This document shows positions 1 through 60,548 of a DNA stretch of 64,000 nt, one piece after another. Positions within the stretch are counted from its first letter, which is position 1. Each line of letters begins with the position of its first letter. The position numbers and the translations under genes are program-made. Below the pieces are notes generated by a model that saw only the letters and a program-made list of their open reading frames with translations, was not told where the DNA came from and searched no databases. Source of the stretch: Alphaproteobacteria bacterium (lineage in GTDB: Bacteria > Pseudomonadota > Alphaproteobacteria > UBA9219 > RFNS01); assembly GCA_016124955.1 (NCBI GenBank), contig WGMR01000008.1, positions 18,004 through 82,003 on the forward strand. Reading direction: 5' to 3'.

Positions 1-166
1 CAAACATGATCATCGAAACTTCGATCGTGCCGAGCATGACGGAAAACAGCACGGGCGCGATGAACGCGAATTCGACGGCCGTCGAGCCGCGCTCGCCGTT
101 CTGCCTGCCGGGAACGGCGGGGCGGACGCGCCGCATCAGGCGCAATATGCCAAGGCTATTTCGCAT
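1..166 (-). CDS. TadE/TadG-like pilus assembly protein, N-terminal fragment (CDS runs off the window start)
   Basis: My reverse-complement translation of 1..166 gives MRNSLGILRLMRRVRPAVPGRQNGERGSTAVEFAFIAPVLFSVMLGTIEVSMIMF. This is the characteristic TadE-like motif G-STAVEFA-xxPVL. The start codon is read as cat at 164-166. It is not in the ORF track because the ORF is incomplete. Confidence 0.45.
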   Translation of the reverse strand, partial: MRNSLGILRLMRRVRPAVPGRQNGERGSTAVEFAFIAPVLFSVMLGTIEVSMIMF

Positions 167-186
167 GTTTGTCAGCTTACCATGAC

Positions 187-200
187 ATGGTTAACCATGC
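187..200. promoter_or_regulatory. Perfect 14-bp palindrome CATGGTTAACCATG in the AT-rich divergent promoter region between the TadE-like gene and the acylation operon
   Basis: Seen in the sequence at 187-200. It lies in the 167-353 AT-rich gap upstream of the 354..992 gene's 3' end and the tadE-like start. Confidence 0.3.
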
Positions 201-353
201 CCTTAATCATTAAAAAGAATTAATACGAATTTCGACGCACTTTGCCGGTTTTTTGGCCTTGAAAGCAATTGTTTCGTGCACCCGGGACCGGTGCGAGGCA
301 AAAAATAACCTGAAATTTCTTAAATAATCCGGGCAAAGGCAAAAGTTAAGGAA

Positions 354-992
354 TCAGGCGGTTTTAAAGCGGGCCGGGTTGCCAAGCGCAATCGCGCCCG
401 GGGGGACCATATTGTAAACGACGCTGCCCGCACTGATCCGCGCCCGCGTGCCGACCTTAATGCCGGGCGTGATGATGGTGGCGGAACCAAGATAGACGCT
501 ATCCGCCAGCTGCGCGCGCCCGAGCATCAGCGCATAGGGGCTAAGGCATGAAAAATCCCCGATCACGGCTTCGTGGCCGACCAGTGCGCCGACATTCAGA
601 AAAACCTGCGCGCCCAGCACGGCTTCCGCCGCCACGGTCGCCTGGTGCGATATGACGCAACCTTCGCCCAGCTTCGCGCTGGATGCGACATAGGCGCGCG
701 GGTGCACGAGCGTGGTGAATTGCGCGCCGCGGCGTAAAAGCCGGTGGGTTACGGTGCGGCGGTGATCGGGTTCGCCCATCGCAATCACGCATGCATCGCC
801 GTCTTCGGGCACGTAATTGTCGATCGCGCCAATTACCTTGGCGCCGGCATGCGGCGTGCCGACCGCTTTGGTATCGTCAAGGAAGCCGCGAATCCGGAAA
901 GCGGCGCCCGCCGCCATCGCATCTTCGGCGTAGCCCGCCACTTCGAGCCCGAGCCCGCCCGCACCGACAATCACCAGATTTTTCTTGGTCAT
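354..992 (-). CDS. NeuD/PglD/VioB-family sugar N-acyl(acetyl)transferase with left-handed beta-helix (hexapeptide) repeats
   Basis: N-terminal Rossmann-like KNLVIVGAGGLGLEV motif is followed by hexapeptide repeats typical of the PglD/NeuD family. It is the last gene of a co-directional operon with 4-nt overlaps. Confidence 0.8.
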   Translation of the reverse strand: MTKKNLVIVGAGGLGLEVAGYAEDAMAAGAAFRIRGFLDDTKAVGTPHAGAKVIGAIDNYVPEDGDACVIAMGEPDHRRTVTHRLLRRGAQFTTLVHPRAYVASSAKLGEGCVISHQATVAAEAVLGAQVFLNVGALVGHEAVIGDFSCLSPYALMLGRAQLADSVYLGSATIITPGIKVGTRARISAGSVVYNMVPPGAIALGNPARFKTA

Positions 993-2248
993 GACACACC
1001 CGCCTCAAAGCCTGTTTGCACGCACCGCGTCAATTCGCGGACTATATCATACCCGTCCCATATATGGTGAAAAGCCAGCGCCTGTCCGGGCGGCACGAGC
1101 CGGTCGAAGCCGCGCCCGCCGCAGCGGGCGGCAAATTCCTGCAATATGGCGGGCGAAAAACCCGCATGCACCAGCGTCTGGTCGCGGCGCTCGGCCATGT
1201 CCGCCAGTGCCGCGAGGCCGGGCAGCACGCATTCGATCAAAAGCCCGTGCCCGTAACCCACCCGCTTGAACGGCAACAGCGCTTCGGGCGCTATGATGCG
1301 CAAAACCGCAAGCCGCGGACCGAAGGTGCGGCGCAGCGTAATCGGCAGATCGACTTGCGCGAGGTAATCGGCGCCCAGCCGTGCCATATGCGCGCCAGCA
1401 TCAATGCGCATGGCCTTATACCCGGCGGCGGCACTTACGCGCCTGTAAAAATCATCCCCCGCGCCGGTCGCGGCATCTTCCGTGCCTACCCACGCAATCG
1501 CGCGCGGGCTGGAACAGGCCATTTGCTCGTACCAGAATAAATCGTTGGCAAACTGCCCCGCCATTTTTTCGCGCGCGTCTTCGGGCATGGCCGCGTATTG
1601 TTTGGCATCGAACGCCGCCCATGAAAATTTATCAGCGAAAGCGAGGTCTTTGGTCAGCGGCCCGGCGGCAATGGCGCGTACGGCGGCCACCGCTTCATCG
1701 CCCCCCCAGATCATGCGCACGTCCGCCGCGCGGCTCAGAAGCCCGGTCGTGGCGGCATCGTGCGCATAGCGCACTATATATATGTGTGCGGCGATGGCGG
1801 GCCCGGCCTGCGCGCAGGCTTGCCGCAGCAACGCCGCCAGCAATTGTCCCGCCGCGCCGGCGCGCCCGGAAAGGCGTGTGATACTGGCATTGCCGGCAAG
1901 GAGCGCCAGCGCCAGCGTATAGACGAAGATGGTATCGACATTCGCGGGCGGAAAATGCAGCACAAGACCGCGCGGCGCGCTGCGGCTGCCTGCGGGTTGC
2001 GTCATTTTAAAGTGCGCTTCCACCCGTTGCAGCGAAGCCGGGCGCAACCAGAACCCGAGCGCCTGCAGTTCCGGATATTTGCGCGCTCCCGTGTCGTGCA
2101 ACAGCAGTTCGGAAAAAGCGGCAAGGAAATTTTTTGTTTCTTCGGCAAAGGGTTGCAGCGGGTGGTCGCGACGCGCCTGTTCCTGCTGCGCGATCAGCGC
2201 GGCCGCATCGGTTTCCGTTCCCCGGGGGGCGATAACCTGTATTGTCAT
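989..2248 (-). CDS. LuxC-like acyl-CoA / acyl-protein reductase
   Basis: 419 aa. Similarity to LuxC fatty-acyl reductases was recognised from the translation. Start and stop overlap the neighbours by 4 nt (989-992 and 2245-2248). Confidence 0.7.
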   Translation of the reverse strand: MTIQVIAPRGTETDAAALIAQQEQARRDHPLQPFAEETKNFLAAFSELLLHDTGARKYPELQALGFWLRPASLQRVEAHFKMTQPAGSRSAPRGLVLHFPPANVDTIFVYTLALALLAGNASITRLSGRAGAAGQLLAALLRQACAQAGPAIAAHIYIVRYAHDAATTGLLSRAADVRMIWGGDEAVAAVRAIAAGPLTKDLAFADKFSWAAFDAKQYAAMPEDAREKMAGQFANDLFWYEQMACSSPRAIAWVGTEDAATGAGDDFYRRVSAAAGYKAMRIDAGAHMARLGADYLAQVDLPITLRRTFGPRLAVLRIIAPEALLPFKRVGYGHGLLIECVLPGLAALADMAERRDQTLVHAGFSPAILQEFAARCGGRGFDRLVPPGQALAFHHIWDGYDIVRELTRCVQTGFEAGVS

Positions 2249-3321
2249 GCCGCCAGCCCCGCGCCGTGTACATCGCCGCAGCCGCGCAGCGGCGCGCGCG
2301 GAACCCGTCCTTCAACCACGAAGCCCTTGCCCATGCGGCCGTCAACGCCGCTATCGACCGCGATAATGCGCCCGATATCCTCGGTCAGCAGCGAATGACC
2401 GGGATAGCTGCGCGGCAGCGGGGAAAGCACCTGTATCAGCCCGGCTTCGCCGCGCGGCGCGGGCGCCAAGGTCAGCGGGTCGCGAATGATAACGTCGGCG
2501 AAAACCGGCGGGTAAAGCAACCCGTCACTGTTTTCTACAAAGATGCTGCCGACCTGTTCGGCCATGCCGTAAAAATTATGGATACGCCGCAACCCGAAGG
2601 ATTTTTCAAGCCCCGAGCGGAAGGCTTTGTTATCGACCGCCTGTGCCTGCAATTGTTTCCACCCGCCGCTGTGCAACAAAATGCCGTTCTGCATATCGTA
2701 GCCGCGTTCGCGCAGCGGCTGCCGGAAATGCTGCCAGACCATAAAGGTGAAGCCGAACATAAGGAACGGCGCGGTGCCGTGTTCAAGCAGGAATTGCCCG
2801 ATCGCGGCGCGGTTTGGTTCCATATCCTCGCTCAGCGCGAAAGCGTGGTTGCGCCCGAGCGGCATGAGCCCGAGGATCCCGGCCGCGCGCGCATTAATCT
2901 GCTCCGCGCCGCCGACGCTGGAAGGTTTGTCGATGATCAGCATGGGCAGGCGTTCCGTGCCGATCACGTCTTGCATGATGATCGCGAGCGCGCGCGCCTG
3001 CAGCTTCGCCGTTGCGGCATCGAGCGGGATGCGGCTTACGGGCCCGCTTGTCCCGCTGGATGTCAGCGTGGTGCGCACCATGCGTTCGGGCACGCTTGAA
3101 AGCAGCCGGTGCTTGAACAGCGAAACCGGTATAAAGGGCAGCGCCGCCAGCGTATCCGCGCCTTGATAATCGGGGGCGCTGAGGGAAAGGATTTTTGCAT
3201 AAGCCGGGCAATGCGCCGCGTGCTCGGCTGTCAGCATGCGCAAAAGCGGAAGCAGGTGCGTTTCCTTGATCGCCTGGCCAAGGCTGAAGGGCGGTACATG
3301 CAAAAGCTTTTCCAGCGTCAC
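2245..3321 (-). CDS. LuxE-like acyl-protein synthetase (adenylate-forming, PaaK-like fold)
   Basis: 358 aa with a TSSGTSG P-loop-like adenylation motif. LuxE-family resemblance. Translationally coupled to the flanking genes. Confidence 0.7.
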   Translation of the reverse strand: MTLEKLLHVPPFSLGQAIKETHLLPLLRMLTAEHAAHCPAYAKILSLSAPDYQGADTLAALPFIPVSLFKHRLLSSVPERMVRTTLTSSGTSGPVSRIPLDAATAKLQARALAIIMQDVIGTERLPMLIIDKPSSVGGAEQINARAAGILGLMPLGRNHAFALSEDMEPNRAAIGQFLLEHGTAPFLMFGFTFMVWQHFRQPLRERGYDMQNGILLHSGGWKQLQAQAVDNKAFRSGLEKSFGLRRIHNFYGMAEQVGSIFVENSDGLLYPPVFADVIIRDPLTLAPAPRGEAGLIQVLSPLPRSYPGHSLLTEDIGRIIAVDSGVDGRMGKGFVVEGRVPRAPLRGCGDVHGAGLAA

Positions 3322-4754
3322 AAAAGCCCCCGCAATCTTACGTAATCAATTTTGCCCTGTCCGGTCAGCGGCAGCGAAGGCAGGTATTTCAGCTTTATGC
3401 TCTGCGAAGGCAGTTGCATGCGTTCCTGCAATACCTGCTCAAGCTGTTTTTGCACGCTCTGGTCGCGCTGATCGGTGGCGATGACAATATGATCGCCGCA
3501 ATCCATCGCCGCGCAGGGCGTAACGGAACGGCCAATCGCCTCAACCTCATCCAGCATCACGCGCAAACCGTGGATCTTTGCCATGCGCTGCTTGCGCCCG
3601 GTGATGGTGAGAAAGCCTTCCTCGTCCAGCACGCCGTAATCGCCGGTGATCAGTGTGGTGCGCATGTCGTCGCCGCGCGAAAGATCGGCGCGGTCGTCGG
3701 CATAGCCGAACATCACGTTCGGCCCGCGATACACAACCTCGCCCTCCGTGCCCGGCGGGCAGGGATAGCCATCCTTGCTGATGACCTCAAGCGTGCCCCC
3801 TTCAAGCGCTTGCCCGACCGTGCCGGATTTGCGCGCAAAATCTTCAAAACGCAGCGTGGTCATGCGCGGTGATGCCTCGGTTTGCCCGTACATCACGACA
3901 AGCTTGCCGCCGCGCGTGCCAAGCTTGTCGGCGAAATCCTGCAGCAATCCGGCGTCGGCCTTGCCGCCCGCCTGCAGCCAGGTGTTGAGCGTCGGCGCGT
4001 GCAACCGCGCAAGCCCAAGCCGCTGCACCATGGTAAAATGCGAAGGCACGCCGGCAAACAGCGTGCATTGCCGGTTTTGCACCAGTTTCCAGAAATCGTT
4101 TTGCACAACGCTCGCTTCGGTCAGCACGACGCTGCCGCCGCAGGCAAGCAGCGTGTGCAGAACGGAAAGCCCGAAGGAATAGGAAAGCGGCAAATGCAGC
4201 ACCGCCCGTTGTGCCGGGTCCAGCGCAAGCGCGTCAATAACCGCGGCGATATTATGCGCGAGGTTGCGGTAAGCAAGCCGCACGAATTTCTTGCTTCCCG
4301 TGCTGCCTGATGTCGAAAGCAGCAAAAATAATTGCGGGTTGATCCCGGCCGTATCGTGCTTGTCCGCTTCATAAATCTGCATGCCGTCGGCCCCCGCTTG
4401 CAGCCGGCGCAGCCCGGTCGGGTTTGCGAGCGGCGCGGGCGCCACGATCCAGTCGGGCCGGTAAGCCTTGCGCAGGCTGCTAAGCGTGCTTTCCTCGCAA
4501 TCGTGATCGAGCATCATGATTGCGTGCCCGGCGGCGGCAATCGCGAGATAGGCGACCGCGCACGCCGCGCTGTTACGCGCGAGCAGGAAAACCAGATGTT
4601 TGTGATCGCCGGCAAAGGTTTTGGCCATTTCGGCTACGCGTTCGCGTAGCGCGCCGTAGCTGATCCAGTCCTGCAAACTCTGATCGAATAGAGCGGGGGC
4701 GTCGTCCGGCGCGTCGGGCGCAATCAGGTCTTGCGGAAGATCGAGCGCGCGCAT
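3318..4754 (-). CDS. AMP-dependent synthetase/ligase (fatty acid or acyl-CoA/ACP ligase)
   Basis: 478 aa. Carries the AMP-binding motifs LSTSGSTGSKK and YGQTE. Confidence 0.8.
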   Translation of the reverse strand: MRALDLPQDLIAPDAPDDAPALFDQSLQDWISYGALRERVAEMAKTFAGDHKHLVFLLARNSAACAVAYLAIAAAGHAIMMLDHDCEESTLSSLRKAYRPDWIVAPAPLANPTGLRRLQAGADGMQIYEADKHDTAGINPQLFLLLSTSGSTGSKKFVRLAYRNLAHNIAAVIDALALDPAQRAVLHLPLSYSFGLSVLHTLLACGGSVVLTEASVVQNDFWKLVQNRQCTLFAGVPSHFTMVQRLGLARLHAPTLNTWLQAGGKADAGLLQDFADKLGTRGGKLVVMYGQTEASPRMTTLRFEDFARKSGTVGQALEGGTLEVISKDGYPCPPGTEGEVVYRGPNVMFGYADDRADLSRGDDMRTTLITGDYGVLDEEGFLTITGRKQRMAKIHGLRVMLDEVEAIGRSVTPCAAMDCGDHIVIATDQRDQSVQKQLEQVLQERMQLPSQSIKLKYLPSLPLTGQGKIDYVRLRGLL

Positions 4755-4760
4755 GGTCCG

Positions 4761-5018
4761 TTACACGGTGACGCCGTGCAGCGCGAGGATGGAGCGCGCC
4801 TTGGCGTAATCGCTCATATCCAGTATCTGCTCGGTTGTGAACATAACTTCGAACGCCCCTTCGATGGAGGCCACCAGCCGCATATGCGCGATCGAATCCC
4901 ACGCGGCGGTATCCTGGTAGGCCAGCCGCTCGACCGGCTCCTTGCCATCAAGCGCAAGGGCGCTGCGAAAACATTCGGCCAGTCGGTCGGCATTGGTCAC
5001 GGGCATTGTTCCTTTCAA
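4761..5018 (-). CDS. Acyl carrier protein-like
   Basis: 85 aa. The DSIAHM motif is the phosphopantetheine-attachment serine context. Size and acidic helical character are typical of ACP. Confidence 0.7.
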   Translation of the reverse strand: MKGTMPVTNADRLAECFRSALALDGKEPVERLAYQDTAAWDSIAHMRLVASIEGAFEVMFTTEQILDMSDYAKARSILALHGVTV

Positions 5019-5024
5019 GGGCGG

Positions 5025-5444
5025 CTATTCGCCGATTATCTTCACAAGCACGCGTTTGCGGCGCTTGCCGTCATATTCGCCGTAAAATATCTGTTCCCAT
5101 GTGCCGAAATCCAGCTTGCCGCCGGTTATGGCCACGGTCACTTCGCGGCCCATCACCTGCCGTTTCAAATGCGCGTCGGCATTATCCTCGCCGGTGTCGT
5201 TGTGGCGGTACCGGTCGTGCGGCTTTTCCGGCGCCAGTTTTTCCAGCCATTCTTCGAAGTCGTTGTGCAACCCGCGCTCGTCGTCGTTGATAAAAACGCT
5301 CGAGCTTATATGCATAGAATTGCAAAGCAGAAACCCTTCACGGATGCCGCTTTCGGCCAGCGCCTCTTCGACCTGCGGCGTAATATTGATATAGGCGCGG
5401 CGTGAAGGGATGTTGAAAACCAGTTCCTTGCGGTAAGACTTCAT
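5025..5444 (-). CDS. yjbQ: YjbQ/UPF0047 family protein (secondary thiamine-phosphate synthase-like)
   Basis: 139 aa. Family recognised from the conserved [17 protein letters not shown] region. It is the first gene of the operon that continues into the ACP, ligase, LuxE, LuxC and NeuD genes. Confidence 0.75.
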
Positions 5445-5643
5445 GGGCTTGATCCTAAAGACATTGTGCTGCCGGTCAATTTAACGCTTTTCTGCTCTTA
5501 TCAAGTTATATCAATAAGATACAATTTATCCCCAGTGCAAGAAACCCTGAATTCGCGCGGATTGCGCCCCATTCTTGCCATAAGCTGACCCTAACTTTTT
5601 GATGTAAGACGGCACACGCCGTCACAACTGCTCGGAGGAAGAT

Positions 5644-6171
5644 ATGCGCAGCAGGCTTTTCTCGAACTTCGCTTTAACCGCCGCGGTGATCGCGCTTGCG
5701 ATGCCGCTGGCCGCAGCCCCCGCCCATGCGGGCAAGGATACCGCCGGCCTGTTGCTTGGCGCCGGGCTTGGCGGCCTGCTCGGCAACCAGTTCGGTCACG
5801 GTACCGGCAAGGTGATCGCGACCAGCGTCGGCGTGTTCGCGGGCGGCCTGGTAGGCAGCTCGGTCGGCCGTTCGCTCGATCGTGCAGACCATACCTATTA
5901 CAGGGGCCAAACCACCAGCTACTACGCGCCGCAGCGCCACCGTGCGCATTACCGGCCCAACTATGTGGCCCCGGCCTATCACACGACACAAGTGATATAC
6001 GTGCCGCAACCGCAACCGGTCTATGTGCAGCAAGGCTATGTTTCGCCCACATCCTCCAATGGCAGCTATTGCCGCGAATACACCAGCAGCGTGCAGATCG
6101 GCAACCAGTTGCGCGAAAGCTACGGCACCGCCTGCATGCAGCCCGACGGCAGCTGGCAGATAAATGACTAG
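5644..6171 (+). CDS. Secreted/outer-membrane lipoprotein with a glycine-zipper (17-kDa surface antigen-like) domain
   Basis: Signal peptide, then GLLLGAGLGGLLGNQFGHGTGKVIATSVGVFAGGLVGSSVG glycine-zipper, then a Y/Q/P-rich C-terminus. Confidence 0.55.
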   Translation: MRSRLFSNFALTAAVIALAMPLAAAPAHAGKDTAGLLLGAGLGGLLGNQFGHGTGKVIATSVGVFAGGLVGSSVGRSLDRADHTYYRGQTTSYYAPQRHRAHYRPNYVAPAYHTTQVIYVPQPQPVYVQQGYVSPTSSNGSYCREYTSSVQIGNQLRESYGTACMQPDGSWQIND

Positions 6172-6246
6172 ATAAGGTCAAATTTCCGCCACGAATCTGT
6201 GGTGGATTATAGGTCTCACGTGATTGAGCAGCGCGTGAGAGAGGCG

Positions 6247-6287
6247 CCCGGAACCGCTGGATGTAAGCGGTTCCGGGTTTTCTTTTG
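6247..6287 (+). terminator. Rho-independent terminator after the glycine-zipper lipoprotein gene
   Basis: Stem cccggaaccgc / gcggttccggg with a 9-nt loop, followed by tttcttttg. Confidence 0.55.
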
Positions 6288-6341
6288 CCCGCCGCCGCCG
6301 TAATAATGGCCTTCTTCCCCGCCGGGGAACAGGAAAGCGCC

Positions 6342-7379
6342 ATGACCGATCTGCTCACCAGTGATTTTGCCTTCGACCTGCCGCCCGAACTGATCGCGCC
6401 CGCGCCCGCGCGTCCGCGCGATGCCGCGCGGCTTTTGCACGTTACCCCCGCGGCGCTGGCCGATAGGCAGGTGCATGATTTGCCCGGCCTGCTGCGTGCG
6501 GGCGATCTGATGGTGTTCAACGATACGCGCGTGATCCCATCCCGCCTGATCGGGTGGCGCGGCGATGTGCGCGTGGAAACGCTTTTGCACAAACATGCGG
6601 GCGGGGGGCTCTGGCTGGCCTTTGCCCGGCCCGGCAAGCGCTTGCGCGCGGGCGACGACATAATCTTCGCCCCCGATATTCGTGCAAAAATTATGGAAAA
6701 GTGGGAAGGGGGCGAACTGGCGCTGGAATTTTCATGCAGCCATGCCGGTCTGCTCGCCTTCATGCAGGCGCATGGCCATATGCCGCTGCCGCCCTATATC
6801 AAACGCGCGGCTGGCGATACCGCGGAAGACCGCGCCGATTATCAAACCGTTTATGCCGCGCGTGACGGCGCGGTGGCCGCGCCCACGGCGGGGCTGCATT
6901 TTACGCCCGAACTGCTTGCCGCGCTTGATGCAAAGGGCATTGAGCGCATGCATGTGACGCTGCATGTCGGGGCGGGCACGTTCCTGCCGGTCAAGGCTGC
7001 GCGCATCGCCGATCATGTGATGCATGCCGAATGGGGGGAGGTAACGCCCGAAAATGCCGCAAGGCTTTTGCGCGCGAAGCAGGAAGGTCGCCGCATCGTT
7101 GCCGTCGGCACCACGGCGGCACGGCTGCTGGAAACCGCCGCGCGCGGCGGGGCCATTGCGCCGTTTGCGGGTGAAACCGATATATTTATTTATCCCGGTT
7201 TTGCCTTCAGGGCGGTCGATGCGCTGATGACCAATTTCCATTTGCCGGAATCCACGCTTTTCATGCTGGTGTCCGCTTTCGCGGGGCGGGATCGTATGCA
7301 AGCCGCCTACCGCCATGCTATAGAGCGTCGCTACCGTTTCTTTTCCTACGGCGATGCAACCTTGCTGGAACGCGCATGA
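6342..7379 (+). CDS. queA: S-adenosylmethionine:tRNA ribosyltransferase-isomerase
   Basis: QueA family. The likely start is the [12 protein letters not shown] at 6342 inside the longer ORF 6285..7379. It overlaps tgt by 4 nt. Confidence 0.9.
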
Positions 7380-8527
7380 GCACGCAATTCGATCTTCTGG
7401 CATATGATGGCGATGCGCGGCGCGGTCGCGTCACCACCGCGCATGGCAGTTTTGAAACGCCATGCTTCATGGCCACGGCCACGGCCGCGAGCGTAAAGGG
7501 CATGCACTGGCGCGATGTCGCTGCCGCCGGAGCCGAACTTGCCATCTGCAACACCTATCATCTGATGCTGCGTCCCGGGGCGGAACAGATCGCGGCGCTG
7601 GGCGGGCTGCACGCCTTCACCGGCTGGCAGGGCCCGATTTTGACGGATTCCGGCGGTTTTCAGGTGATGTCGCTGACGGGGTTGCGCAAGCTGACCGAAC
7701 AGGGCGTGGTCTTTCGCTCCCACGTCGATGGCACGCAATATAACCTGACGCCCGAACGCTCGATCGAAATCCAGCATTTGCTCGATAGCGATATCGCAAT
7801 GGCGTTCGATGAATGCACGCCGTTCCCGGCTGAACCGGATGTGGCGGCGCAATCCATGCGCATGTCGATGCGCTGGGCGCAGCGTTCGCGCGATGCCTTC
7901 AAGGCGCGCACAGGCTACGGCCTGTTCGGGATCGTGCAAGGCGGCGTGCACCCGCATCTGCGGCTTGAATCGGTCGAAGCGCTGCGCAAGATCGGTTTCG
8001 ATGGTTACGGTATCGGCGGCCTTGCCGTGGGCGAAGGGCAGGAAAGCATGTTCGCCATGCTTGATGTCACCAAAGCGGTGCTCCCGGCCGGTAAGCCGCG
8101 CTATCTCATGGGGGTCGGGCGGCCCGATGATATGGTCGGTGCCGTGGCGCGTGGGGTCGATATGTTCGATTGCGTAATCCCCACGCGTTCGGGCCGTACC
8201 GGGCAAGGTTTTACAAGCCGCGGCGTGTTGAACATTCGCAACGCCCGTCATGCGGCCGATAAACGTCCGCTCGATGAAAATTGCGGCTGCCCGGCCTGCG
8301 CGAACCACAGCCGCGCCTATCTGCACCACCTGTTCCGGGCCGATGAGATGCTGGGTCCGATGCTGCTAAGCTGGCACAACATGCATTACTATCAAGATTT
8401 GATGCGCGGCATCCGGGCCGCCATTGAAGCCGGCGCCTTCGCCGCCTTCGCCGAAGCCTTTTATGCCGGCTATACGCGCGGCGATATCGATCCGCCGGAA
8501 AAGGCCGGCAAACCCGCCGCCGGATAG
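7376..8527 (+). CDS. tgt: Queuine tRNA-ribosyltransferase
   Basis: 383 aa. Tgt family with the Zn-binding CxCxxC...H motif (CGCPACANH). The queA-tgt adjacency is canonical. Confidence 0.9.
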
Positions 8528-8562
8528 TTGCCGGGGGCGCGCGGCTGGTTTAGAAGATACGT

Positions 8563-9078
8563 ATGTATTTCCGCCAAGCCGTCATATTCGTTTTCTGCCT
8601 GTTCGTGGCCGCCGTTGTGGCCGCGATCGGCCTGCGCGCCGATCAGGAAGAAAAAACCGCCACCACGCAAACCCAGTATCCGCAGTTCGCGGCGCTGCGC
8701 TTCAACGAAGTGAACCTGCGCACGGGCCCCGGCAAGCGCTACCCGGTCGAATGGGTTTACCGGCGCGAAGGCATGCCGGTTGAAATTACCGCGACATTCG
8801 ATGTTTGGCGCCGGGTGCGCGATTGGGAGGGTTCGGAAGGCTGGGTGCACAAAACCATGCTGCGTTATCGCCGCACCGCCATCATTACCGGCAAGCAGCG
8901 CAAGCTGCATCTCAAGCCCGATGCCGCCGCGCCGGTAGTGGCGCAGCTGGAAGGCGGCGTGATCGCCCGTCTGGAATCTTGCGAAAGCGAATGGTGCATG
9001 CTCGAAGCGGGCGGCGCCGAAGGCTGGCTGCGCAAGGCGGATTTCTGGGGCGCGGCGGCACCCGAAACATTCGATTAA
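8563..9078 (+). CDS. Membrane-anchored bacterial SH3 (SH3b)-domain protein
   Basis: N-terminal TM helix plus an SH3b-like core (VNLRTGPGKRYPVEWVY...GWV). Confidence 0.5.
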   Translation: MYFRQAVIFVFCLFVAAVVAAIGLRADQEEKTATTQTQYPQFAALRFNEVNLRTGPGKRYPVEWVYRREGMPVEITATFDVWRRVRDWEGSEGWVHKTMLRYRRTAIITGKQRKLHLKPDAAAPVVAQLEGGVIARLESCESEWCMLEAGGAEGWLRKADFWGAAAPETFD

Positions 9079-13762: not shown

Positions 13763-15079
13763 ATGAATATTGCGATTCTTGGTGCCGGTTATGTCGGGCT
13801 TGTATCTGCGGCATGCTTCGCCGAATTCGGCCATACCGTTGTCTGTATCGATTCCAACAAGGAAAAAATCGCGCGCCTGCAAAAGGGCCAGATTCCCATT
13901 TATGAACCCGGTCTCGATGACCTGGTCGAACGCAACGCCGCCAAAGGCAATCTGAAGTTCGCAGATACGCTCGATGGCGCGGCGGCCGATGCCGACGCGA
14001 TTTTTATTGCCGTCGGAACGCCCAGCCGCCGCGGCGACGGGCATGCCGATCTTTCCTATGTTTACGCGGCCGCGAAGGATATCGCCGGGCGGCTTGATGG
14101 CTATACCGTGGTCGTGACCAAATCCACCGTGCCGGTCGGCACCGGGCGGGAGGTGCAGAAAATCATCCGCGAAGCCAACCCGGCTGCCGATTTCGATGTG
14201 TGCTCCAACCCGGAATTTTTGCGCGAAGGATCCGCGATCGGTGATTTCATGCGCCCGGACCGCGTGGTGATTGGCGCTGAAAATACCCGCGCGGGCGATG
14301 TGATGCGTGCGCTCTACCGGCCGCTCTATATCAACGAAACACCGGTGGTGCAGACCGGTCTGGAAACCGCCGAGCTGATCAAATATGCCGCCAACGCTTT
14401 CCTTGCCACCAAGATCACCTTTATCAACGAGATTGCGGATTTGTGCGAGCGTGTTGGCGCGGATGTGCAGGATGTCGCGCGCGGCATCGGGCTTGATGGC
14501 CGCATCGGCCGCAAGTTTTTGCATGCCGGGCCGGGTTTCGGCGGTTCGTGTTTCCCCAAAGATACGCTTGCGCTTGTGCGCACGGCACAGGAAGCGGGTT
14601 CGCCCATGCGTATCGTCGAAACCGTTGTGGATGTGAACGACAGGCGCAAGGCCAGCATGGCCACGCGCATCATGGATGCTTGCGGCGGGCCGAAGGGCGG
14701 CGGCGTGAAGGGCAAGACCATCGCCATTCTCGGGCTTACCTTCAAACCCAACACCGACGATATGCGCGATAGCGTCAGCCTCGAAATCGTCCCGGCATTG
14801 CAGAAAGCTGGCGCGGTTGTGCGCGCCTTCGATCCCGCCGGGATGGAATATGCCGCACGCGTTCTGCCGGGCGTGACCTTGTGCAAGGATGCCTATGATG
14901 CGCTTGCGGGCGCCGATTGCGCCGCCATTCTTACCGAATGGAACGAATTTCGCGCGCTCGATCTTGCCCGCCTGCGCAGCCTGATGCGGGCGCCGGTGGT
15001 GGTGGATTTACGGAATGTCTATAAGGGCGACGAGATGCGGGAAGCGGGAATCGCCTATGCATCGATAGGCCGCAGATAG
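13763..15079 (+). CDS. ugd: UDP-glucose 6-dehydrogenase
   Basis: 438 aa. N-terminal GAGYVGL Rossmann motif and the catalytic GGSCFPKD motif. Confidence 0.85.
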   Translation: MNIAILGAGYVGLVSAACFAEFGHTVVCIDSNKEKIARLQKGQIPIYEPGLDDLVERNAAKGNLKFADTLDGAAADADAIFIAVGTPSRRGDGHADLSYVYAAAKDIAGRLDGYTVVVTKSTVPVGTGREVQKIIREANPAADFDVCSNPEFLREGSAIGDFMRPDRVVIGAENTRAGDVMRALYRPLYINETPVVQTGLETAELIKYAANAFLATKITFINEIADLCERVGADVQDVARGIGLDGRIGRKFLHAGPGFGGSCFPKDTLALVRTAQEAGSPMRIVETVVDVNDRRKASMATRIMDACGGPKGGGVKGKTIAILGLTFKPNTDDMRDSVSLEIVPALQKAGAVVRAFDPAGMEYAARVLPGVTLCKDAYDALAGADCAAILTEWNEFRALDLARLRSLMRAPVVVDLRNVYKGDEMREAGIAYASIGRR

Positions 15080-55243: not shown

Positions 55244-55335
55244 CTGTGTGGGCTGGAGGGGCTAAGCGAGTGCCCCCTCATAGCCTAGATGATAATAGGT
55301 ATCAATAGCAATTTTAAACTATTGTTATAAATAGA

Positions 55336-56595
55336 CTAACTGGCCCATCTTGTTAGAACCTGCGCCGCTTTCAGGCCGCTGCGGATCGAGCCTTCGATGG
55401 TGGAAGGCAGGCTGGTATCGGTCCAGTCGCCGGCGAGCACGAGGTTTTTCCACTGTGTCCATGCGCGCGGGCGGCGCTTCACCTGTTCGGGCGTGGCGGC
55501 GAAGGTCGCGCGTTTTTCTTTCACGATCCGGTGCGGCGGGATTGTATCGGGGTCGAGCCCGTAAAGCTTCGCCACATCAGCCCAGATCATTGCGGCGCAG
55601 GTGGAAGCGGGCAGATCGACATAACGTTCGGCCGCACTCACGGTCACCGAAACCACGCCCGGCTTGGCGAAAATCCATTCCGCTACGCCGCCGATGATGC
55701 CGCAAAACCCGGCCTGCGTGCGCGGCACATCGATGCGGTAATGCGCGTTGACGATCGCGCGGAAATCGTTCGGCACCGTAAGCGCGGGCACCAGTTCGCC
55801 CGTTACCCATGCCGGTGTCGCCAGCACGACCCAATCCTTCGGGCCCATCTTCAGCGTCGCGCCGCCGAAATTCAGCCCGTTCACGCGTTCGGCATCCATC
55901 TCGACCGCGCGCAGCCGCTGCCCCAGATGCACGGAAACCTTCATCGCCTGCAGCTTTTTCAAACACGGATCGACGAATGTTTCGGAAAGCCCGATTTTGG
56001 GAATGCGCGGCATGCAAGCCTTGCCGCCCGCGCCGAAGGTTTGCGCGAACACGTTGGTCATCAGCTTCGCGGCGGCGTTGGCGGGTTCCGTGTTCAGCAC
56101 CGCGACCGTCAATGGCTCCCAGAAACGTTTATACAGCGTGCCATAGCCGCCCAGCAGCCCTTCGATCGTGTCGTCGTCGCGCGCGGTGAACAGCTTGACG
56201 ATCGAGGCGTAGTCGGCCGTTCTGGTTTCCGGCACGCGATGGCGGGGGGAGAAAATCCACCACGGCACCATGCCCTTGTTCATGCGCACGACCCATCGCC
56301 CGCCATGCGCGACGTCGGCGAACGGGAAAACCGGCTCGTCCGGTCCCGCCAGCGTATCTTCGGCGCCGGTGAAAAACAGATAATCCATCATCACCATGTT
56401 GCCGGAAAGCACGAGATGGTTGCCGTTATCGATCCGGCAACCGAGCTCGCGATCGAAATAGGAACGGCAGCGCCCGCCCGCCAACAGGCTGGCTTCATAA
56501 AGCGAAACCCTGAAGCCGCTCATGGCCAGGTGCAGTGCGGTAGAGAGCCCGGCCAGACCGGCGCCAACGACGTGAATATGATGTTCTTTATGCAT
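55336..56595 (-). CDS. hpnE: Hydroxysqualene dehydroxylase (FAD amine-oxidase family)
   Basis: 419 aa. N-terminal FAD motif VVGAGLAGLSTAL. Positioned after hpnC-hpnD. Confidence 0.85.
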   Translation of the reverse strand: MHKEHHIHVVGAGLAGLSTALHLAMSGFRVSLYEASLLAGGRCRSYFDRELGCRIDNGNHLVLSGNMVMMDYLFFTGAEDTLAGPDEPVFPFADVAHGGRWVVRMNKGMVPWWIFSPRHRVPETRTADYASIVKLFTARDDDTIEGLLGGYGTLYKRFWEPLTVAVLNTEPANAAAKLMTNVFAQTFGAGGKACMPRIPKIGLSETFVDPCLKKLQAMKVSVHLGQRLRAVEMDAERVNGLNFGGATLKMGPKDWVVLATPAWVTGELVPALTVPNDFRAIVNAHYRIDVPRTQAGFCGIIGGVAEWIFAKPGVVSVTVSAAERYVDLPASTCAAMIWADVAKLYGLDPDTIPPHRIVKEKRATFAATPEQVKRRPRAWTQWKNLVLAGDWTDTSLPSTIEGSIRSGLKAAQVLTRWAS

Positions 56596-56610
56596 GCGGG
56601 CGTTTTTAAA

Positions 56611-57471
56611 CTATAGGCTCGAAAGCGCCAGCCAAATTTTCCGCCACAGCGGCAATTCCACGCGTTTGCGGGTTTCCTGCCAATCCTGTTCGATCAGGCG
56701 GTCAAGGATGGCACGGTAATAGGCGCCCATGATGCGCGCGGGGCGCATGGCGCGCCGGTCGCATTGCCGCATGGCGTCGCGCGCCTCGCGGAAATGACCG
56801 AGTGCGACTTCGGCAAGGTCGCGGCACACGCGCGGCAAATCCACATGCGCCAGCACCATGCGCGGGGTCGCATCGGCCATGCCGTGTTTATACAAAAGTT
56901 CGTGCGGCAAATACAGCCTGCCGCGCCGCGCATCTTCGTTCAGATCGCGCAAAATGTTGGTAAGCTGCAGCGCGCGCCCCAAATGGTGCGCAACCCGCAT
57001 CGCCTGTGCGCTGCTGTCGCCGAAAATCCGGACCGAAGCGCGCCCGACCGCGCTCGCAACCCGGTCGCAATAGGTATCGAGCTTGGCCATGCTCGGTTTG
57101 CAGATGGGTGCGCCCGCATCCATCTCCATGCCGTCGATGATCGCCTGAAAATCCTCCTCCGCCAGCCCGTAGGCGGCGACGGCGGGTTGCAGCGCCTGCG
57201 TGATCGCGTCTTCGGCCGTGTTTTCCCGGAACAGGCGCGCGATGCGCGTGCGCCAGAGCGCGAGCCCGGCGCGGCGCGCCTGCTCGTTCGGGCCGTCGTC
57301 CGCGATATCGTCCACCTCGCGGCAAAATCCATACAAGGCATACATGGCGTCGCGCCGCGCGCGGGGCAGCGCCATCATGCCGGCGGTAAAGGATGAGCGC
57401 GATGCGCGCACGCGCGCCCGCATCGCCGCTGCGGGGTTGTTTATGTTTATTGCCGCCGCCGTCATAGCCAT
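56611..57471 (-). CDS. hpnD: Presqualene diphosphate synthase
   Basis: 286 aa. Squalene/phytoene-synthase fold with Asp-rich motifs (FCREVDDIADD). Confidence 0.85.
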   Translation of the reverse strand: MAMTAAAININNPAAAMRARVRASRSSFTAGMMALPRARRDAMYALYGFCREVDDIADDGPNEQARRAGLALWRTRIARLFRENTAEDAITQALQPAVAAYGLAEEDFQAIIDGMEMDAGAPICKPSMAKLDTYCDRVASAVGRASVRIFGDSSAQAMRVAHHLGRALQLTNILRDLNEDARRGRLYLPHELLYKHGMADATPRMVLAHVDLPRVCRDLAEVALGHFREARDAMRQCDRRAMRPARIMGAYYRAILDRLIEQDWQETRKRVELPLWRKIWLALSSL

Positions 57472-58340
57472 GCCGTCAGCAAACCGCGCAGCGCCGCCAA
57501 GGCGGCGGCGGGCTTGCCCAGCTTTACGTTATCCGCCAGCGGGTCGCGGCGCGCCAGAAGCTTCACAAGATCGTCCGCCAGCACGCAGATGATCGAAGTT
57601 TCGATCCGCAACCGCATGTCGCCGGCCTGGCGCGGCAGCATGCGCGCCTGTTTCAGCATCGGGCCGAGCAGGCCGAGCATATCGTCGAACGTGGCGCGCA
57701 GCGCAGCGCTCGATTGTTCGGCGGCAATATCGCCGATTGCCGCCCCGCGGGCCGCCAGCATATCCTGCGGAATATAAACGCGGTCGAGCGCGGCGTAATC
57801 CTTGGTGCAATCCTGCATGTGGTTGATGATCTGCAGCGTGCTGCAAAGCGCGTCGTTGGCGGGCCATGCTTCTTCGCCGGTGCCGTGCAGCGCCAGCACA
57901 AAGCGCCCGACCGGTGCGGCGGAATAGCGGCAATAATCGACCAGATCGTCCCAATCCTTGTAGCGCAACTTGATGGCGTCGCGGCGGAAGGCGGTCAGGA
58001 GATCGAGGCAATGCTGCGGTGTGATGCCGGTTTCGCGCAGACTTTCGCGCATGTGCACGGCCGAAGGCACATCGTCGCCCGCATCCGCCTTGTCGCACAG
58101 CACGGCGGCGAAGCGATCAAGGCGCGAAATTTTTTCCTTGGCTTCCAGCATCGGGTTATCCGCCACATCGTCCGATGCGCGGGCGAAGCCGTAAAAGGCG
58201 TGCACGTGGCGGCGGGCATCGGGGCGGATCAGCCAGGATCCGACAGGAAAGTTTTCATCGCCCGCGCCCTTGCCGCTCGGCGTTTCGGTCGCGCGCGGCG
58301 CGTCCGGCGCATGCGCCGTCATGTCTCTTGCCGGTTCCAT
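57462..58340 (-). CDS. hpnC: Hydroxysqualene synthase
   Basis: 292 aa. Squalene/phytoene-synthase fold (YGFARASDDVADN). Confidence 0.85.
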   Translation of the reverse strand: MEPARDMTAHAPDAPRATETPSGKGAGDENFPVGSWLIRPDARRHVHAFYGFARASDDVADNPMLEAKEKISRLDRFAAVLCDKADAGDDVPSAVHMRESLRETGITPQHCLDLLTAFRRDAIKLRYKDWDDLVDYCRYSAAPVGRFVLALHGTGEEAWPANDALCSTLQIINHMQDCTKDYAALDRVYIPQDMLAARGAAIGDIAAEQSSAALRATFDDMLGLLGPMLKQARMLPRQAGDMRLRIETSIICVLADDLVKLLARRDPLADNVKLGKPAAALAALRGLLTAWL

Positions 58341-59483
58341 TTACCGGCGCGCCTCGGTGCGGCCCTTCCATTCGCCGCCCGCACCCGCCCATGTCAGGCG
58401 AGCGGAATCGCACGTCGCGCCGATATAAACTGCGCCCGCCGCGGGCAGCGCCAGCGTCCAGGCAGGCGGCAACCCGTAAAGCCGGATCATCGGCAGATAG
58501 GTGAAGGCCATCGCCGCGATGGCCAGCAACGCGAACAGCTTGCCCCAAAGCCCTGCGAACAAAATCGCCGCCAGCGGCGCGATGAACAAAATCGCCATCC
58601 CGAGCACGCAAGCGAGCAAAAGAAAGACCGAATGTTTAAGCTGTGTGAAGGCGGTGCGCGCGATCATTTGCCAGATCGGGCCGGTTTCGCCGTATGCGCG
58701 TACGCTTTCCGTATCGTTGCTCAGCGCCAGCAATGTGCGTGCATACGCGCCGGGCAGGCTTTTGTGCTTGATCAGTTTCGCCAGTTCACAATCGTCGATC
58801 AGCGCGCGGCGGATCGCGATCAAGCCTTCGACCTTGTCAAGCGCGCTCTTGCGCACCAGCATCACGCCGCCCGCCGCCGCGGCGATCGCGCTATCGTGGT
58901 CGTTCGCGAGCCGGAAGGGATACAGCATCTGGAAAAAATATACGAAAGCGGGGATCAGGATTTTTTCCGCCCGGCTGGCGCAATGCAGCTTGACCATCAG
59001 CGAAACAAGATCGGCGCTTTGCGTTTCCGCCTGCGTCACAAGGCGGCGGATATTATGTGCTGGGTGCCTGATATCGGCATCGGTGAACAACACAAAATCG
59101 CTGTCGGCGTGTTCCTGCCCTGCCTGCATGGCGCTGACCTTGCCGGTCCAGCCATCCTTGGGTTCGGATGCCGCAATAACTTCAAGCCGCTTCGCGAGCC
59201 CGAGTTCGTTCGCGATCTTGCGCGCCACGTCCGCCGTGCCGTCGCTGCTGTGGTCGTCAAGCAAAAGCACGCGCCATGTGCCGGGGTAATCCTGCTGCAA
59301 AAGGGAAGGCAGCGTCTTGGGCAGTTCCTGTGCCTCGTCGCGCGCGGGCACGATCACGGTGACGGAAGGCCAGTAACCGCGCGGCGCGGTTTCCGGCAGG
59401 AAGAAGGGCTGCCAGAACCGGCGTCCGTGGAGAAATGTAAGGTATAGCCAGCCGATCAGGCTCAGGAGTGCGAGGGATGTCAT
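58341..59483 (-). CDS. hpnB: Hopanoid-associated family-2 glycosyltransferase
   Basis: 380 aa. GT2 motifs (VIVPARDE, LLDDHSSDGT, DAD) plus a C-terminal membrane domain. Confidence 0.8.
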   Translation of the reverse strand: MTSLALLSLIGWLYLTFLHGRRFWQPFFLPETAPRGYWPSVTVIVPARDEAQELPKTLPSLLQQDYPGTWRVLLLDDHSSDGTADVARKIANELGLAKRLEVIAASEPKDGWTGKVSAMQAGQEHADSDFVLFTDADIRHPAHNIRRLVTQAETQSADLVSLMVKLHCASRAEKILIPAFVYFFQMLYPFRLANDHDSAIAAAAGGVMLVRKSALDKVEGLIAIRRALIDDCELAKLIKHKSLPGAYARTLLALSNDTESVRAYGETGPIWQMIARTAFTQLKHSVFLLLACVLGMAILFIAPLAAILFAGLWGKLFALLAIAAMAFTYLPMIRLYGLPPAWTLALPAAGAVYIGATCDSARLTWAGAGGEWKGRTEARR

Positions 59484-59510
59484 CGGGCGTGCCAGTCGTT
59501 GGTTGCCGGG

Positions 59511-60548
59511 TCAGTAATTGTTTTGCTTGAACCAGTTTACGGCATCAAGGATGGCATCATACGCCGCGCGGGCGCGATAACCAAGCCGGCTTTCCGCCTT
59601 CTTGATGCTGAAAAACATCTTCTTTCTGGCCATATTCAGGCCATCAATGGTCACGAACGGGTCGCGGCCCGTGATGCGCGCGGCCAGCTCGGCCCCGAAG
59701 GCAATGGGGTAGATAAGCCCGCGCGGCAGCGCCAGCGTGGGCGGTTTGCGCCCGGTGATCTCGGCCACGTGGCGCAGAATATCGCGCAGCAGAAGATTCT
59801 CGCCGCCAAGAATGTATCGCTCGCCCACCTCGCCGCGGTCATAAGCCAGAACGTGGCCGATCGCGACATCGTCCACATGAACCACGTTCAAACCGGTATC
59901 GACGAAGGCGGGCATGCGGCCATGCATGGCCTCGACGATCATGCGCCCGGTCGGCGTCGGCTTGATATCGCGTGGGCCGATCGGGGCGGAAGGGTTGACG
60001 ATCACGGCGGGCAAGCCCTTTTCCGCGATCATCGCTTTCACCGTTTCCTCGGCCAGGAATTTGGATCGCTTGTAATGCCCGATCATGCCGCCAACATGCG
60101 AAGGCGTGGTTTCGTCAGCCGACGTGCCATCGGCGTTGCTGCCCAGCACGGCAACGGAACTGGTGTACACGATGCGCTTAACGCCCATCAAAAGCGCGGC
60201 GTTCATCAGCGCCTGCGTGCCTTCCACATTGGCCTGGTACATAGCGGCGGGGTTAGGCACCCAGATGCGGTAATCGGCGGCGATATGAAACAGCGCGTCG
60301 CATCCTGCCAGCGCGCGGGTCAGGGAATCGTGATCCAGCAGGTTGCCTTCCGCGATCTCGATATCAAGCCCCGCCAGGTTGCGCCTGTCGTTGTCCGGCC
60401 GGGTCAGGATCCGGACCCGGTGCCCTGCGGCCAGAAGCGCGCGCGTCACGGCCGCGCCGATGAAGCCGGTCGCGCCGGTCACAAGGGTTTGCTGCGGGAC
60501 GGTTTGCTGCGGCGGGGCTGGCTGGTTTGGGGTCTGCTCGGTTGTCAT
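59511..60548 (-). CDS. hpnA: Hopanoid-associated NAD-dependent sugar epimerase/dehydratase
   Basis: 345 aa. Rossmann GATGFIG and YxxxK (YKRSK) motifs. Confidence 0.85.
   Translation of the reverse strand: MTTEQTPNQPAPPQQTVPQQTLVTGATGFIGAAVTRALLAAGHRVRILTRPDNDRRNLAGLDIEIAEGNLLDHDSLTRALAGCDALFHIAADYRIWVPNPAAMYQANVEGTQALMNAALLMGVKRIVYTSSVAVLGSNADGTSADETTPSHVGGMIGHYKRSKFLAEETVKAMIAEKGLPAVIVNPSAPIGPRDIKPTPTGRMIVEAMHGRMPAFVDTGLNVVHVDDVAIGHVLAYDRGEVGERYILGGENLLLRDILRHVAEITGRKPPTLALPRGLIYPIAFGAELAARITGRDPFVTIDGLNMARKKMFFSIKKAESRLGYRARAAYDAILDAVNWFKQNNY

Follow-up and report, generated by a model that had tools for sequence, protein, structure and literature searches.

Putative acyl-donor cassettes described in glycan loci

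Gene cassettes that combine an acyl carrier protein (ACP), an AMP-dependent ligase and LuxE- and LuxC-type proteins have been described in flagellin glycosylation islands and in the O-antigen cluster of Vibrio cholerae O1. Here we compare with them a run of six genes located at positions 354–5444, on the minus strand, of a 64,000-nt stretch of the alphaproteobacterial contig WGMR01000008.1, which is referred to below as the window. The group II flagellin glycosylation islands of Aeromonas (98 strains surveyed) and the islands of Enterobacteriaceae carry the same five genes, encoding an acyl carrier protein, a 3-oxoacyl-ACP reductase, an AMP-dependent synthetase, LuxE and LuxC (PMC7874193, PMC4875605). 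The surveys took them for fatty-acid genes that point to a 'liposugar' and assigned no product (PMC7874193, PMC4875605), and our literature searches for a biochemical characterization of the cassette returned only these two genomic surveys. The tetronate branch of V. cholerae O1 includes an AMP-ligase, an iron-dependent alcohol dehydrogenase and a fused LuxC/LuxE protein (PMC3441752, PMC9915646, PMC4772473). The ligase is WbeL (VC0249), whose loss abolishes or alters the O antigen, and the dehydrogenase is WbeM (VC0250) (PMC3441752, PMC9915646); the pathway proposal is credited to Morona et al. 1995 (PMC4772473). In this system the acyl group becomes attached to perosamine, a 4-amino-4,6-dideoxy sugar, at its 4-amino group (PMC3441752, PMC9915646, PMC4772473).

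The window operon shares with the V. cholerae WbeKLMNO system (RfbKLMNO, the 3-deoxy-L-glycero-tetronate branch) a carrier, an AMP-ligase (478 aa compared with 471 aa in WbeL), LuxC and LuxE domains and an acetyltransferase-type enzyme, and the resemblance to this branch proposed in the initial annotation of the window agrees with the gene content reported in the literature. However, WbeN is a single reductase-synthetase fusion (2478 nt), whereas the window has two separate genes, and the iron alcohol dehydrogenase WbeM has no counterpart in the window operon. The V. cholerae genes are embedded in the perosamine (GDP-mannose-derived) O-antigen cluster, whereas the window operon is flanked by yjbQ/lipoprotein/queA/tgt on one side and by tadE/tadE/tadG on the other. 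The flagellin-island cassette (orf1–3, luxE and luxC in Aeromonas) has the same families, order, carrier motif and glycan-locus association. It differs from the window operon, which has no gene for a short-chain dehydrogenase/reductase (SDR), has yjbQ in front, and is surrounded by housekeeping and Tad genes instead of by pse, rml or flagellar genes. The V. cholerae system is best regarded as the functional paradigm and the flagellin-island cassette as the closest structural relative. The gene combination is neither rare nor new, the five-gene set being already present in the flagellin islands; comparison with known operons turns up homologous operons that have been described, but no demonstrated product, the V. 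cholerae proposal being itself sequence-based.

On sequence grounds, the window operon is an SDR-less form of this recognized and widespread cassette of glycan loci. We consider it fairly probable that genes 2–6 constitute a carrier-dependent acyl-donor cassette together with its transferase, which would place a short functionalized acyl group onto a nucleotide-activated amino sugar destined for a surface glycoconjugate. The most probable acceptor is a 4-amino-4,6-dideoxyhexose of viosamine, perosamine or bacillosamine type.

Organization of the window operon

According to the open reading frame (ORF) list of the window, positions 354–5444 of the minus strand hold six co-oriented intact ORFs, listed here in the order of transcription:

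5025..5444, minus strand: YjbQ/UPF0047 family gene, 139 aa (PF01894, TIGR00149), first gene of the run
4761..5006, minus strand: small carrier protein gene, 79–85 aa (start at 5000, 5006 or 5018), with the WDSIAHM motif
3318..4754, minus strand: AMP-forming adenylating ligase gene, 478 aa (PF00501)
2245..3321, minus strand: LuxE-like acyl-protein synthetase gene, 358 aa, GTG start (PF04443)
989..2248, minus strand: LuxC-like thioester reductase gene, aldehyde-dehydrogenase fold, 419 aa (PF05893)
354..992, minus strand: NeuD/PglB/VioB-family sugar N-acyltransferase gene, 212 aa, PglD_N domain and left-handed beta-helix

The six-gene minus-strand set and the families given to its members in the initial annotation are all borne out by the ORFs and their Pfam and NCBIfam matches, and the 4-nt stop/start overlaps noted at 989–992, 2245–2248 and 3318–3321 can each be read directly in the sequence (ATGA at 992–989, ATGA at 2248–2245 and GTGA at 3321–3318). 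The other two junctions do not overlap: the carrier and ligase genes are separated by 6 nt, and the YjbQ and carrier genes by 6–24 nt depending on which of the candidate carrier starts is chosen (TTG 5018, ATG 5006 or GTG 5000, the last being the public gene call of 79 aa). From this spacing we infer that the six-gene run is co-transcribed. The G+C content at third codon positions (GC3) is 0.70–0.77 for all six genes, equal to that of the housekeeping neighbors, and the uniform composition and intactness of all ORFs indicate that this copy is not an obvious relic. Horizontal acquisition of yjbQ or of the cassette was considered as a candidate scenario and rejected on the same uniform composition. 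A megablast search of plasmids with the whole operon as the query gave zero matches.

Distribution and genomic context of related cassettes

Related loci were gathered by a LuxC-profile scan (one genome per species), by tblastn searches of plasmids and by contig look-ups, resulting in a census of 81 loci with enough flanking sequence, whose ORFs were labelled by phmmer. The order carrier–SDR–ligase–LuxE–LuxC is nearly invariant among them, and the window carrier, ligase, LuxE and LuxC genes, each homologous by phmmer to its counterparts in the census, lie on one strand in the order found in the great majority of these loci. A homolog of the window carrier heads the cassette in 76 of the 81 loci, an SDR gene stands between carrier and ligase in 72, the AMP-ligase and LuxE genes are each retained in 77, and a NeuD/PglD-type gene directly follows luxC in 12. 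The commonest conserved neighbors of the cassette are amino-sugar genes. A PseC-like aminotransferase is encoded nearby in 41/81 loci, PseB in 17/81 and a PseH-like GNAT in 13/81, and the representatives of these neighbors match their families with E-values of 2e-122, 8e-114 and 3e-21, respectively; a GT2 glycosyltransferase is found nearby in 22/81.

The related loci span at least nine phyla. The titles of their records name Acidobacteriota, actinomycete genera, Alphaproteobacteria, Chloroflexota, Bacteroidetes, Myxococcales, Gemmatimonas, Elusimicrobia, Obscuribacterales and Deinococcus, and at E ≤ 1e-30 the LuxC-like subfamily comprises 838 cluster representatives (50% identity). A metagenome scan with the LuxC-like protein returned relatives that were only 25–31% identical and gave no help on close synteny. 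On a plasmid of Deinococcus sp. NW-56, the six-gene form of the cassette, with an acetyltransferase gene, follows glycosyltransferase, EpsG and sugar-transferase genes, with an O-antigen ligase gene nearby. The alphaproteobacterium Telmatospirillum sp. J64-1 (locus L037, 3870–19869; NZ_SBHN01000012.1) possesses the full cassette with a PglD-type gene, flanked on one side by genes for flagellin, FlbT and a DesI/VioA-type aminotransferase and on the other by those for RmlB, RmlA, a methyltransferase and a GT2 glycosyltransferase. This locus is predicted to encode a complete route to an N-acylated dTDP-4-amino-4,6-dideoxyhexose within a flagellin glycosylation locus, which fits with VioB being the best solved relative of the window transferase (see below).

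The locus L133 (5777–10212), whose transferase is 50% identical to that of the window, has a complete cassette followed by genes for an 801-aa B12-binding radical-SAM enzyme and two methyltransferases, which hints at extra tailoring of the acyl group or the sugar. The Rhizobium anhuiense plasmid pRA_T24_2 (L090, 5200–17383) carries a rearranged relative, and the same arrangement is suggested in nine other Rhizobium plasmids. Its genes encode a split transketolase-like protein, an LpxA-like acyltransferase, a carrier-sized protein of 79 aa, an AMP-binding protein, a glycosyltransferase, a DegT aminotransferase, LuxE-like and LuxC-like proteins, an SDR, a GMC oxidoreductase and FabZ; judging from this content, it is a different and larger putative acyl-sugar pathway located on symbiosis-type plasmids.

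Carrier, ligase, LuxE-like and LuxC-like proteins

The carrier protein scores 17.0 bits against the PP-binding domain PF00550 (E = 0.007), below the gathering score of 20.8. The serine motif WDS(I/L)AHM is at least 90% conserved across 77 cassette carrier proteins, and the putative phosphopantetheine serine of the window carrier lies in the motif WDSIAHM. The AMP-ligase, which is presumed to load the carrier, matches the AMP-binding family PF00501 with an E-value of 4e-47; its best NCBIfam matches are amino-acid adenylation domains (1e-42), DltA and acyl-ACP ligase, all below their cut-offs.

The LuxE-like protein belongs to PF04443 (3e-42) and matches the LuxE chain of PDB 7xc6 (7xc6_E, 5e-14); it retains the TSSGTSG motif, and its C-terminal Cys348 (RGC) aligns with the KGC of the solved protein. 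The LuxC-like protein matches PF05893 (1e-23), and its residues Q242, C245, S247 and P248 are invariant in 16 homologs, with the motif of Cys245, QMACSSP, aligned with DQQACFST of LuxC (7xc6_A). The window proteins are therefore comparable to the LuxCDE complex in the LuxE and LuxC folds, the adenylation motif and both acyl-accepting cysteines. However, the relatedness is very distant, the window operon has an additional ligase and a carrier, and its likely substrate is a short di-acid rather than myristate. Among the LuxC-like homologs, a 767-aa protein (P0500) of about twice the usual length has its LuxC-like domain at the C-terminus (residues 398–759) and may be a LuxE–LuxC fusion like WbeN of V. 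cholerae.

The initial annotation had held that the operon is not a luminescence system, and the family searches agree. The LuxC-like and LuxE-like proteins score 29.8 bits against a cut-off of 750 and 53 bits against 550 with the corresponding equivalog models (NF052251, NF052244), only the broad Pfam families being matched. The Pfam and NCBIfam assignments place none of the six operon genes, nor the divergent neighbor, in a LuxD- or LuxAB-type family, and no luciferase or LuxD family member is listed by the public gene calls within 10 kb. The same scores bear on whether the operon could encode a fatty-acid reductase of the LuxCE type, whose long-chain aldehyde or alcohol would go into a lipid, a wax or a signal; the ligase and carrier would then supply it with fatty acids. 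This is suggested by the retained folds and catalytic cysteines of LuxE and LuxC and by the published annotation of cassette genes as fatty-acid related (PMC7874193, PMC4875605), but the distance from both equivalogs and the lack of a LuxD-type acyltransferase among the operon genes argue against it, and a second adenylating enzyme and a private carrier would be redundant for a mono-acid. The hexapeptide transferase, which would have to act on a lipid precursor as LpxA or LpxD do, also bears on it, as described next.

The predicted sugar N-acyltransferase

The last gene of the operon encodes a protein that exceeds the cut-off of the NeuD/PglB/VioB family TIGR03570 (169.6 bits, cut-off 160.8) and that of the PglD_N domain PF17836 (35.1 bits, cut-off 23.4), with 55 bits for Hexapep. 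Its closest solved relative is VioB (7txp, 9e-22), followed by the acetyltransferase domain of Neisseria PglB (4m98), which is the second-best, and the perosamine N-acetyltransferase PerB (4ea7). The histidine of its GHEAVIGD motif aligns with histidines in VioB (SHGVILGD), PglB (DHDCLL) and PerB (DHDCRL), and we take it to be the catalytic residue, as in PglD and PerB. These closest solved relatives all N-acetylate nucleotide-linked 4-amino sugars. The window transferase is like VioB, PglD, the PglB domain and PerB in its NCBIfam family, in the combination of PglD_N with a beta-helix and in the aligned histidine. Those enzymes, however, use acetyl-CoA, whereas translational coupling links the window gene to an acyl-carrier cassette, and a larger acyl donor is therefore expected for its product.

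The transferase also matches LpxD and LpxA, but more weakly and below both of their cut-offs. Given this result, and the abundance of amino-sugar rather than lipid genes at the related loci, a fatty-acid reductase with an LpxA/LpxD-like transferase appears very unlikely.

The transferase also bears on a pathway resembling those of natural products, in which a carrier-tethered amino or hydroxy acid would be converted to an aldehyde and would N-acylate an amine other than that of a sugar. The best NCBIfam match of the ligase, to amino-acid adenylation domains, points in this direction, as do some actinomycete loci with no sugar genes among their annotated neighbors (e.g., Longispora, L003) and the window locus itself, in which sugar genes were not detected. 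We regard such a pathway as highly improbable, since the transferase family is nucleotide-sugar specific in every solved case, amino-sugar genes are the commonest conserved neighbors of the cassette, and the public gene calls show no adjacent nonribosomal peptide synthetase, polyketide synthase or tailoring genes.

Proposed chemistry of the cassette

The family memberships, conserved catalytic residues, gene order and gene neighborhoods observed here suggest how an acyl group might be built and delivered. The acyl-carrier protein as the donor, the amino-sugar acceptor and each of the following chemical steps are proposed on this basis. With two adenylating enzymes for a single carrier and a single thioester reductase, the system suggests a substrate with two carboxyl groups. 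First, the AMP-ligase would adenylate one carboxyl group of the di-acid and load it as a thioester onto the phosphopantetheine of the carrier (at the serine of WDS). Second, the LuxE-like enzyme would adenylate the free distal carboxyl group and hold it as a thioester on its C-terminal cysteine. Third, the LuxC-like reductase would take the acyl group over on Cys245 and reduce it with NAD(P)H to an aldehyde. Fourth, in most relatives the SDR would finish the reduction to an alcohol, a step attributed in V. cholerae to the iron-dependent alcohol dehydrogenase, and for which the window operon has no gene. Finally, the NeuD/PglB/VioB-type transferase would shift the acyl group from the carrier to the amine of the sugar.

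The model case would be the formation of tetronate (2,4-dihydroxybutanoate) from a C4 hydroxy-di-acid. In the proposal for V. cholerae, the tetronate precursor is reportedly a C4 hydroxy-di-acid such as malate. A parallel is the pathway for the (S)-4-amino-2-hydroxybutyrate side chain of butirosin (carrier BtrI, BtrJ/K/O/V and transferase BtrH), in which a short unusual acyl group is likewise built on a private carrier and moved to the amino group of an amino sugar. The butirosin pathway differs in its unrelated families (an ATP-grasp ligase, a decarboxylase, a monooxygenase and BtrH) and in serving an antibiotic and not a surface glycan.

The flagellin glycan of Aeromonas AH-3 contains a 376.14-Da pseudaminic acid derivative and an unassigned 102-Da moiety (PMC7874193). 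By mass arithmetic, exchanging one acetyl of Pse5Ac7Ac for a C4H6O3 acyl group yields 376.148 Da, and C4H6O3 on its own amounts to 102.032 Da. Both masses are compatible with a dihydroxybutanoyl-type C4H6O3 group made by an SDR-containing cassette such as that of the Aeromonas island; isomers of this group, such as methylglyceroyl, may fit the masses as well.

Absence of the SDR and of a linked sugar pathway in the window

The unusual acyl group on a dedicated carrier and its transfer to an amino sugar, as put forward in the initial annotation, still describe the window operon well, but that annotation had overlooked the missing gene for the step catalyzed by the SDR or the iron-dependent alcohol dehydrogenase. 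The operon contains neither an SDR nor an alcohol dehydrogenase gene, and the 6 nt between the carrier and ligase genes leave no SDR remnant. By all five proteins, the nearest relatives are L007 (45–66% identity) and L133, both of which keep the SDR. In the neighbor-joining tree of LuxC proteins, the window groups with L127 (99%), a relative that is 55% identical, and with L007 (92%). Since the nearest relatives keep the gene and the window nests with L127 and L007, the loss of the SDR in the window copy is probably secondary. Cassettes that lack this gene have arisen repeatedly among the loci surveyed, in unrelated lineages (L028, L033, L047 and L049), suggesting that this is a viable variant. 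In such a variant, either an unlinked reductase would act or the acyl group would keep its oxo function. YjbQ was considered as a stand-in for the absent SDR and rejected, since it adjoins none of these other SDR-less cassettes; we know of no nucleotide-cofactor fold in the YjbQ family.

Several observations weigh against the assignment of genes 2–6 to the acylation of an amino sugar. Homologs of the cassette SDR were not detected in the 64-kb window, nor were homologs of the neighbor representatives PseB, PseC, PseH and GT2, and none of these five is annotated in the ~10 kb beyond the left end of the window. About half of the related loci have no detected amino-sugar gene within 10 kb, and the cassette may have a non-glycan role in some lineages. 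The enzymes of the NeuD/PglD family characterized to date are users of acyl-CoA and are not known to use acyl-carrier proteins. Finally, the likeness to the V. cholerae Wbe proteins is one of domain content as given in the literature. Homologs of the deacetylase and GFO-oxidoreductase neighbor representatives were likewise not detected in the 64-kb window.

These absences also raise the question of whether the window copy is an orphaned and partly degraded cassette that, having lost the SDR and been parted from its sugar locus, makes no defined product and persists by read-through from yjbQ. Such decay would account for an SDR gene gone without a remnant (6 nt between carrier and ligase) while the nearest relatives L007 and L133 retain it, and for the lack of detected acceptor-pathway genes in 64 kb. 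We consider it quite unlikely: the five ORFs are full-length with intact catalytic residues, three junctions are still translationally coupled, the codon composition is that of the host, and SDR-less versions recur in the unrelated lineages listed above. Under the acyl-donor reading of genes 2–6, the genes for the acceptor sugar, for the glycosyltransferases and for the final target would lie elsewhere; flagellin, a polysaccharide or perhaps the Tad/Flp pilins are candidates for this target.

YjbQ and the flanking regions

The first gene of the run encodes a clear member of the YjbQ family (PF01894: 3e-37, 127.6 bits, cut-off 27; TIGR00149: 108.4 bits, cut-off 67.75), with 78–83% identity to 139-aa homologs among the matches listed. 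Some of these homologs come from metagenome-assembled genomes of Planctomycetota, Ignavibacteria, Anaerolineales, Bacteroidota and Zixiibacteriota, an unusually high conservation across phyla. YjbQ adjoins none of the 81 related cassettes, with only two weak-scoring occurrences about 6 kb away, and is for this reason placed outside the conserved unit. The gene shares the codon composition of its surroundings by GC3. As the initial annotation had it, yjbQ heads the co-oriented run, but it is no conserved part of the cassette; it is probably a tightly adjacent, co-transcribed neighbor and no pathway component.

The regions that border the operon are the following:

5445..5643: intergenic region of 199 nt separating yjbQ from the divergent lipoprotein gene
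167..353: gap of 187 nt from the acyltransferase stop to the TadE-like start, holding the palindrome CATGGTTAACCATG
1..166, minus strand: 5' end of a TadE-like pseudopilin gene with a G/STAVEF prepilin-type motif, context outside the cassette

Divergently from yjbQ, positions 5644–6171 of the plus strand encode a lipoprotein of the glycine-zipper/17-kDa-antigen type, which is followed by queA and tgt. The intergenic region 5445–5643 is likely the promoter region of the six-gene run, with only weak consensus matches (minus strand 5479–5452, TTGACC-16-TAGGAT); a promoter and terminator scan of positions 1–6300 gave counts not above those of shuffled sequences. An inverted-repeat search found only a trivial palindrome upstream of yjbQ, and a consensus scan of the yjbQ–carrier junction revealed no promoter or terminator site on the operon strand.

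On the other side, the TadE-like gene starts with ATG at position 166 of the minus strand, 187 nt downstream of the transferase gene, and runs off the left end of the window. Beyond it, the public gene calls of the source contig show a second TadE and then a TadG-like gene (PF07811 twice, PF13400 Tad). The consensus scan detected no promoter- or terminator-like site on the minus strand of the 187-nt gap, and the RNA fold of the gap had no extra stability relative to shuffled sequences (z = -0.22). A perfect 14-nt palindrome, CATGGTTAACCATG, is located at 186–199, 20 nt upstream of the TadE-like start codon, with a chance expectation estimated at about 0.01 for a 200-nt gap, and may be an operator. 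The initial annotation had placed the TadE-like gene immediately upstream of the operon across a palindromic promoter; this arrangement is not upheld, since the gene is co-oriented and downstream, the inverted-repeat search gave only the trivial palindrome mentioned above, and the gap has no promoter-like site on that strand and no unusual fold.

Further along the contig (L006, 14981–19482), past the left end of the window and downstream of TadE, TadE and the TadG-like gene, there are four ORFs without a Pfam match (370, 118, 192 and 460 aa), together with a stand-alone protein of 270 aa that has a Peptidase_C39 domain. Elsewhere in the window, N-terminal sequences inspected by eye point to a UDP-glucose 6-dehydrogenase-like protein (13763–15079) and to hopanoid/squalene-like genes at ~55300–62800 (HpnC/D/E-like and a cyclase-sized ORF).

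Association with Tad/Flp genes

The position of the tad genes raises the possibility that the cassette serves Tad/Flp pili as one functional unit with tad. Its product, an acyl group or N-acylated sugar, would then modify the Flp-type pilins or else the pseudopilins TadE, TadF and TadG. Two TadE genes and the TadG-like gene follow the transferase gene in the same orientation, the 187 nt in between have no terminator-like site, and the second-best solved relative of the transferase is PglB, a pilin-glycosylation protein of Neisseria. In the LuxC tree, the window clade (the window, L127 and L007) is sister to L132 and three Flp-adjacent loci (81% of 100 neighbor-joining bootstraps). These three loci (L126, 7344–10886; L128(/129), 5316–8868; L130(/131), 5323–8997) belong to one Rhodospirillaceae-like lineage and have a reduced three-gene set, comprising an AMP-binding N-domain (376–422 aa, corresponding to ligase residues ~14–389 only), a LuxC-like and a PglD-like protein, with no carrier, LuxE or SDR. 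In all three, the set lies divergently beside a gene for a 52–54-aa Flp_Fap pilin, upstream of the mraZ–rsmH–ftsI–murE cell-division cluster.

A dedicated role in Tad/Flp pili is nevertheless unlikely. Adjacency is found in only two lineages of about 85 loci, TadE/TadG homologs occur in 0/81 census loci, and a scan for prepilin motifs finds Flp or TadE only in the window contig and in the lineage of L126, L128 and L130. Tad genes are also absent from the surroundings of the close relatives L007, L132 and L133. Near the window operon there is neither an oligosaccharyltransferase nor a sugar pathway, and a single search of a paper library returned no paper on Flp pilin modification. The adjacency is possibly a coincidence or the shared ancestry of a single arrangement.

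Within the subclade that contains the window, two of the four or five lineages adjoin Tad/Flp genes, a suggestive proportion. It is conceivable, although quite improbable, that this alphaproteobacterial subclade (the window, L127, L007, L132 and the Flp-adjacent versions) has become attached to Tad/Flp systems and provides an unusual acyl or N-acyl-sugar modification of Flp-type pilins or TadE/F/G pseudopilins. If true, an acyl chain made without the SDR would retain an oxo (aldehyde) group, a possible reactive handle on the filament; we know of no described modification of such kind on Tad pili.

Biological significance

The loci in which the cassette is found direct the synthesis of flagellin glycans and surface polysaccharides, structures that weigh heavily in recognition by phages and by the immune system, and the product of the cassette is known only through the sequence-based proposal of 1995 for V. 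cholerae. Telmatospirillum sp. J64-1, a cultured alphaproteobacterium, is usable to probe the product of the cassette on flagellin. The window copy introduces no new principle; it indicates that the cassette can exist without the second reductase and away from sugar genes, and one subclade places it beside the genes of Tad/Flp pili.

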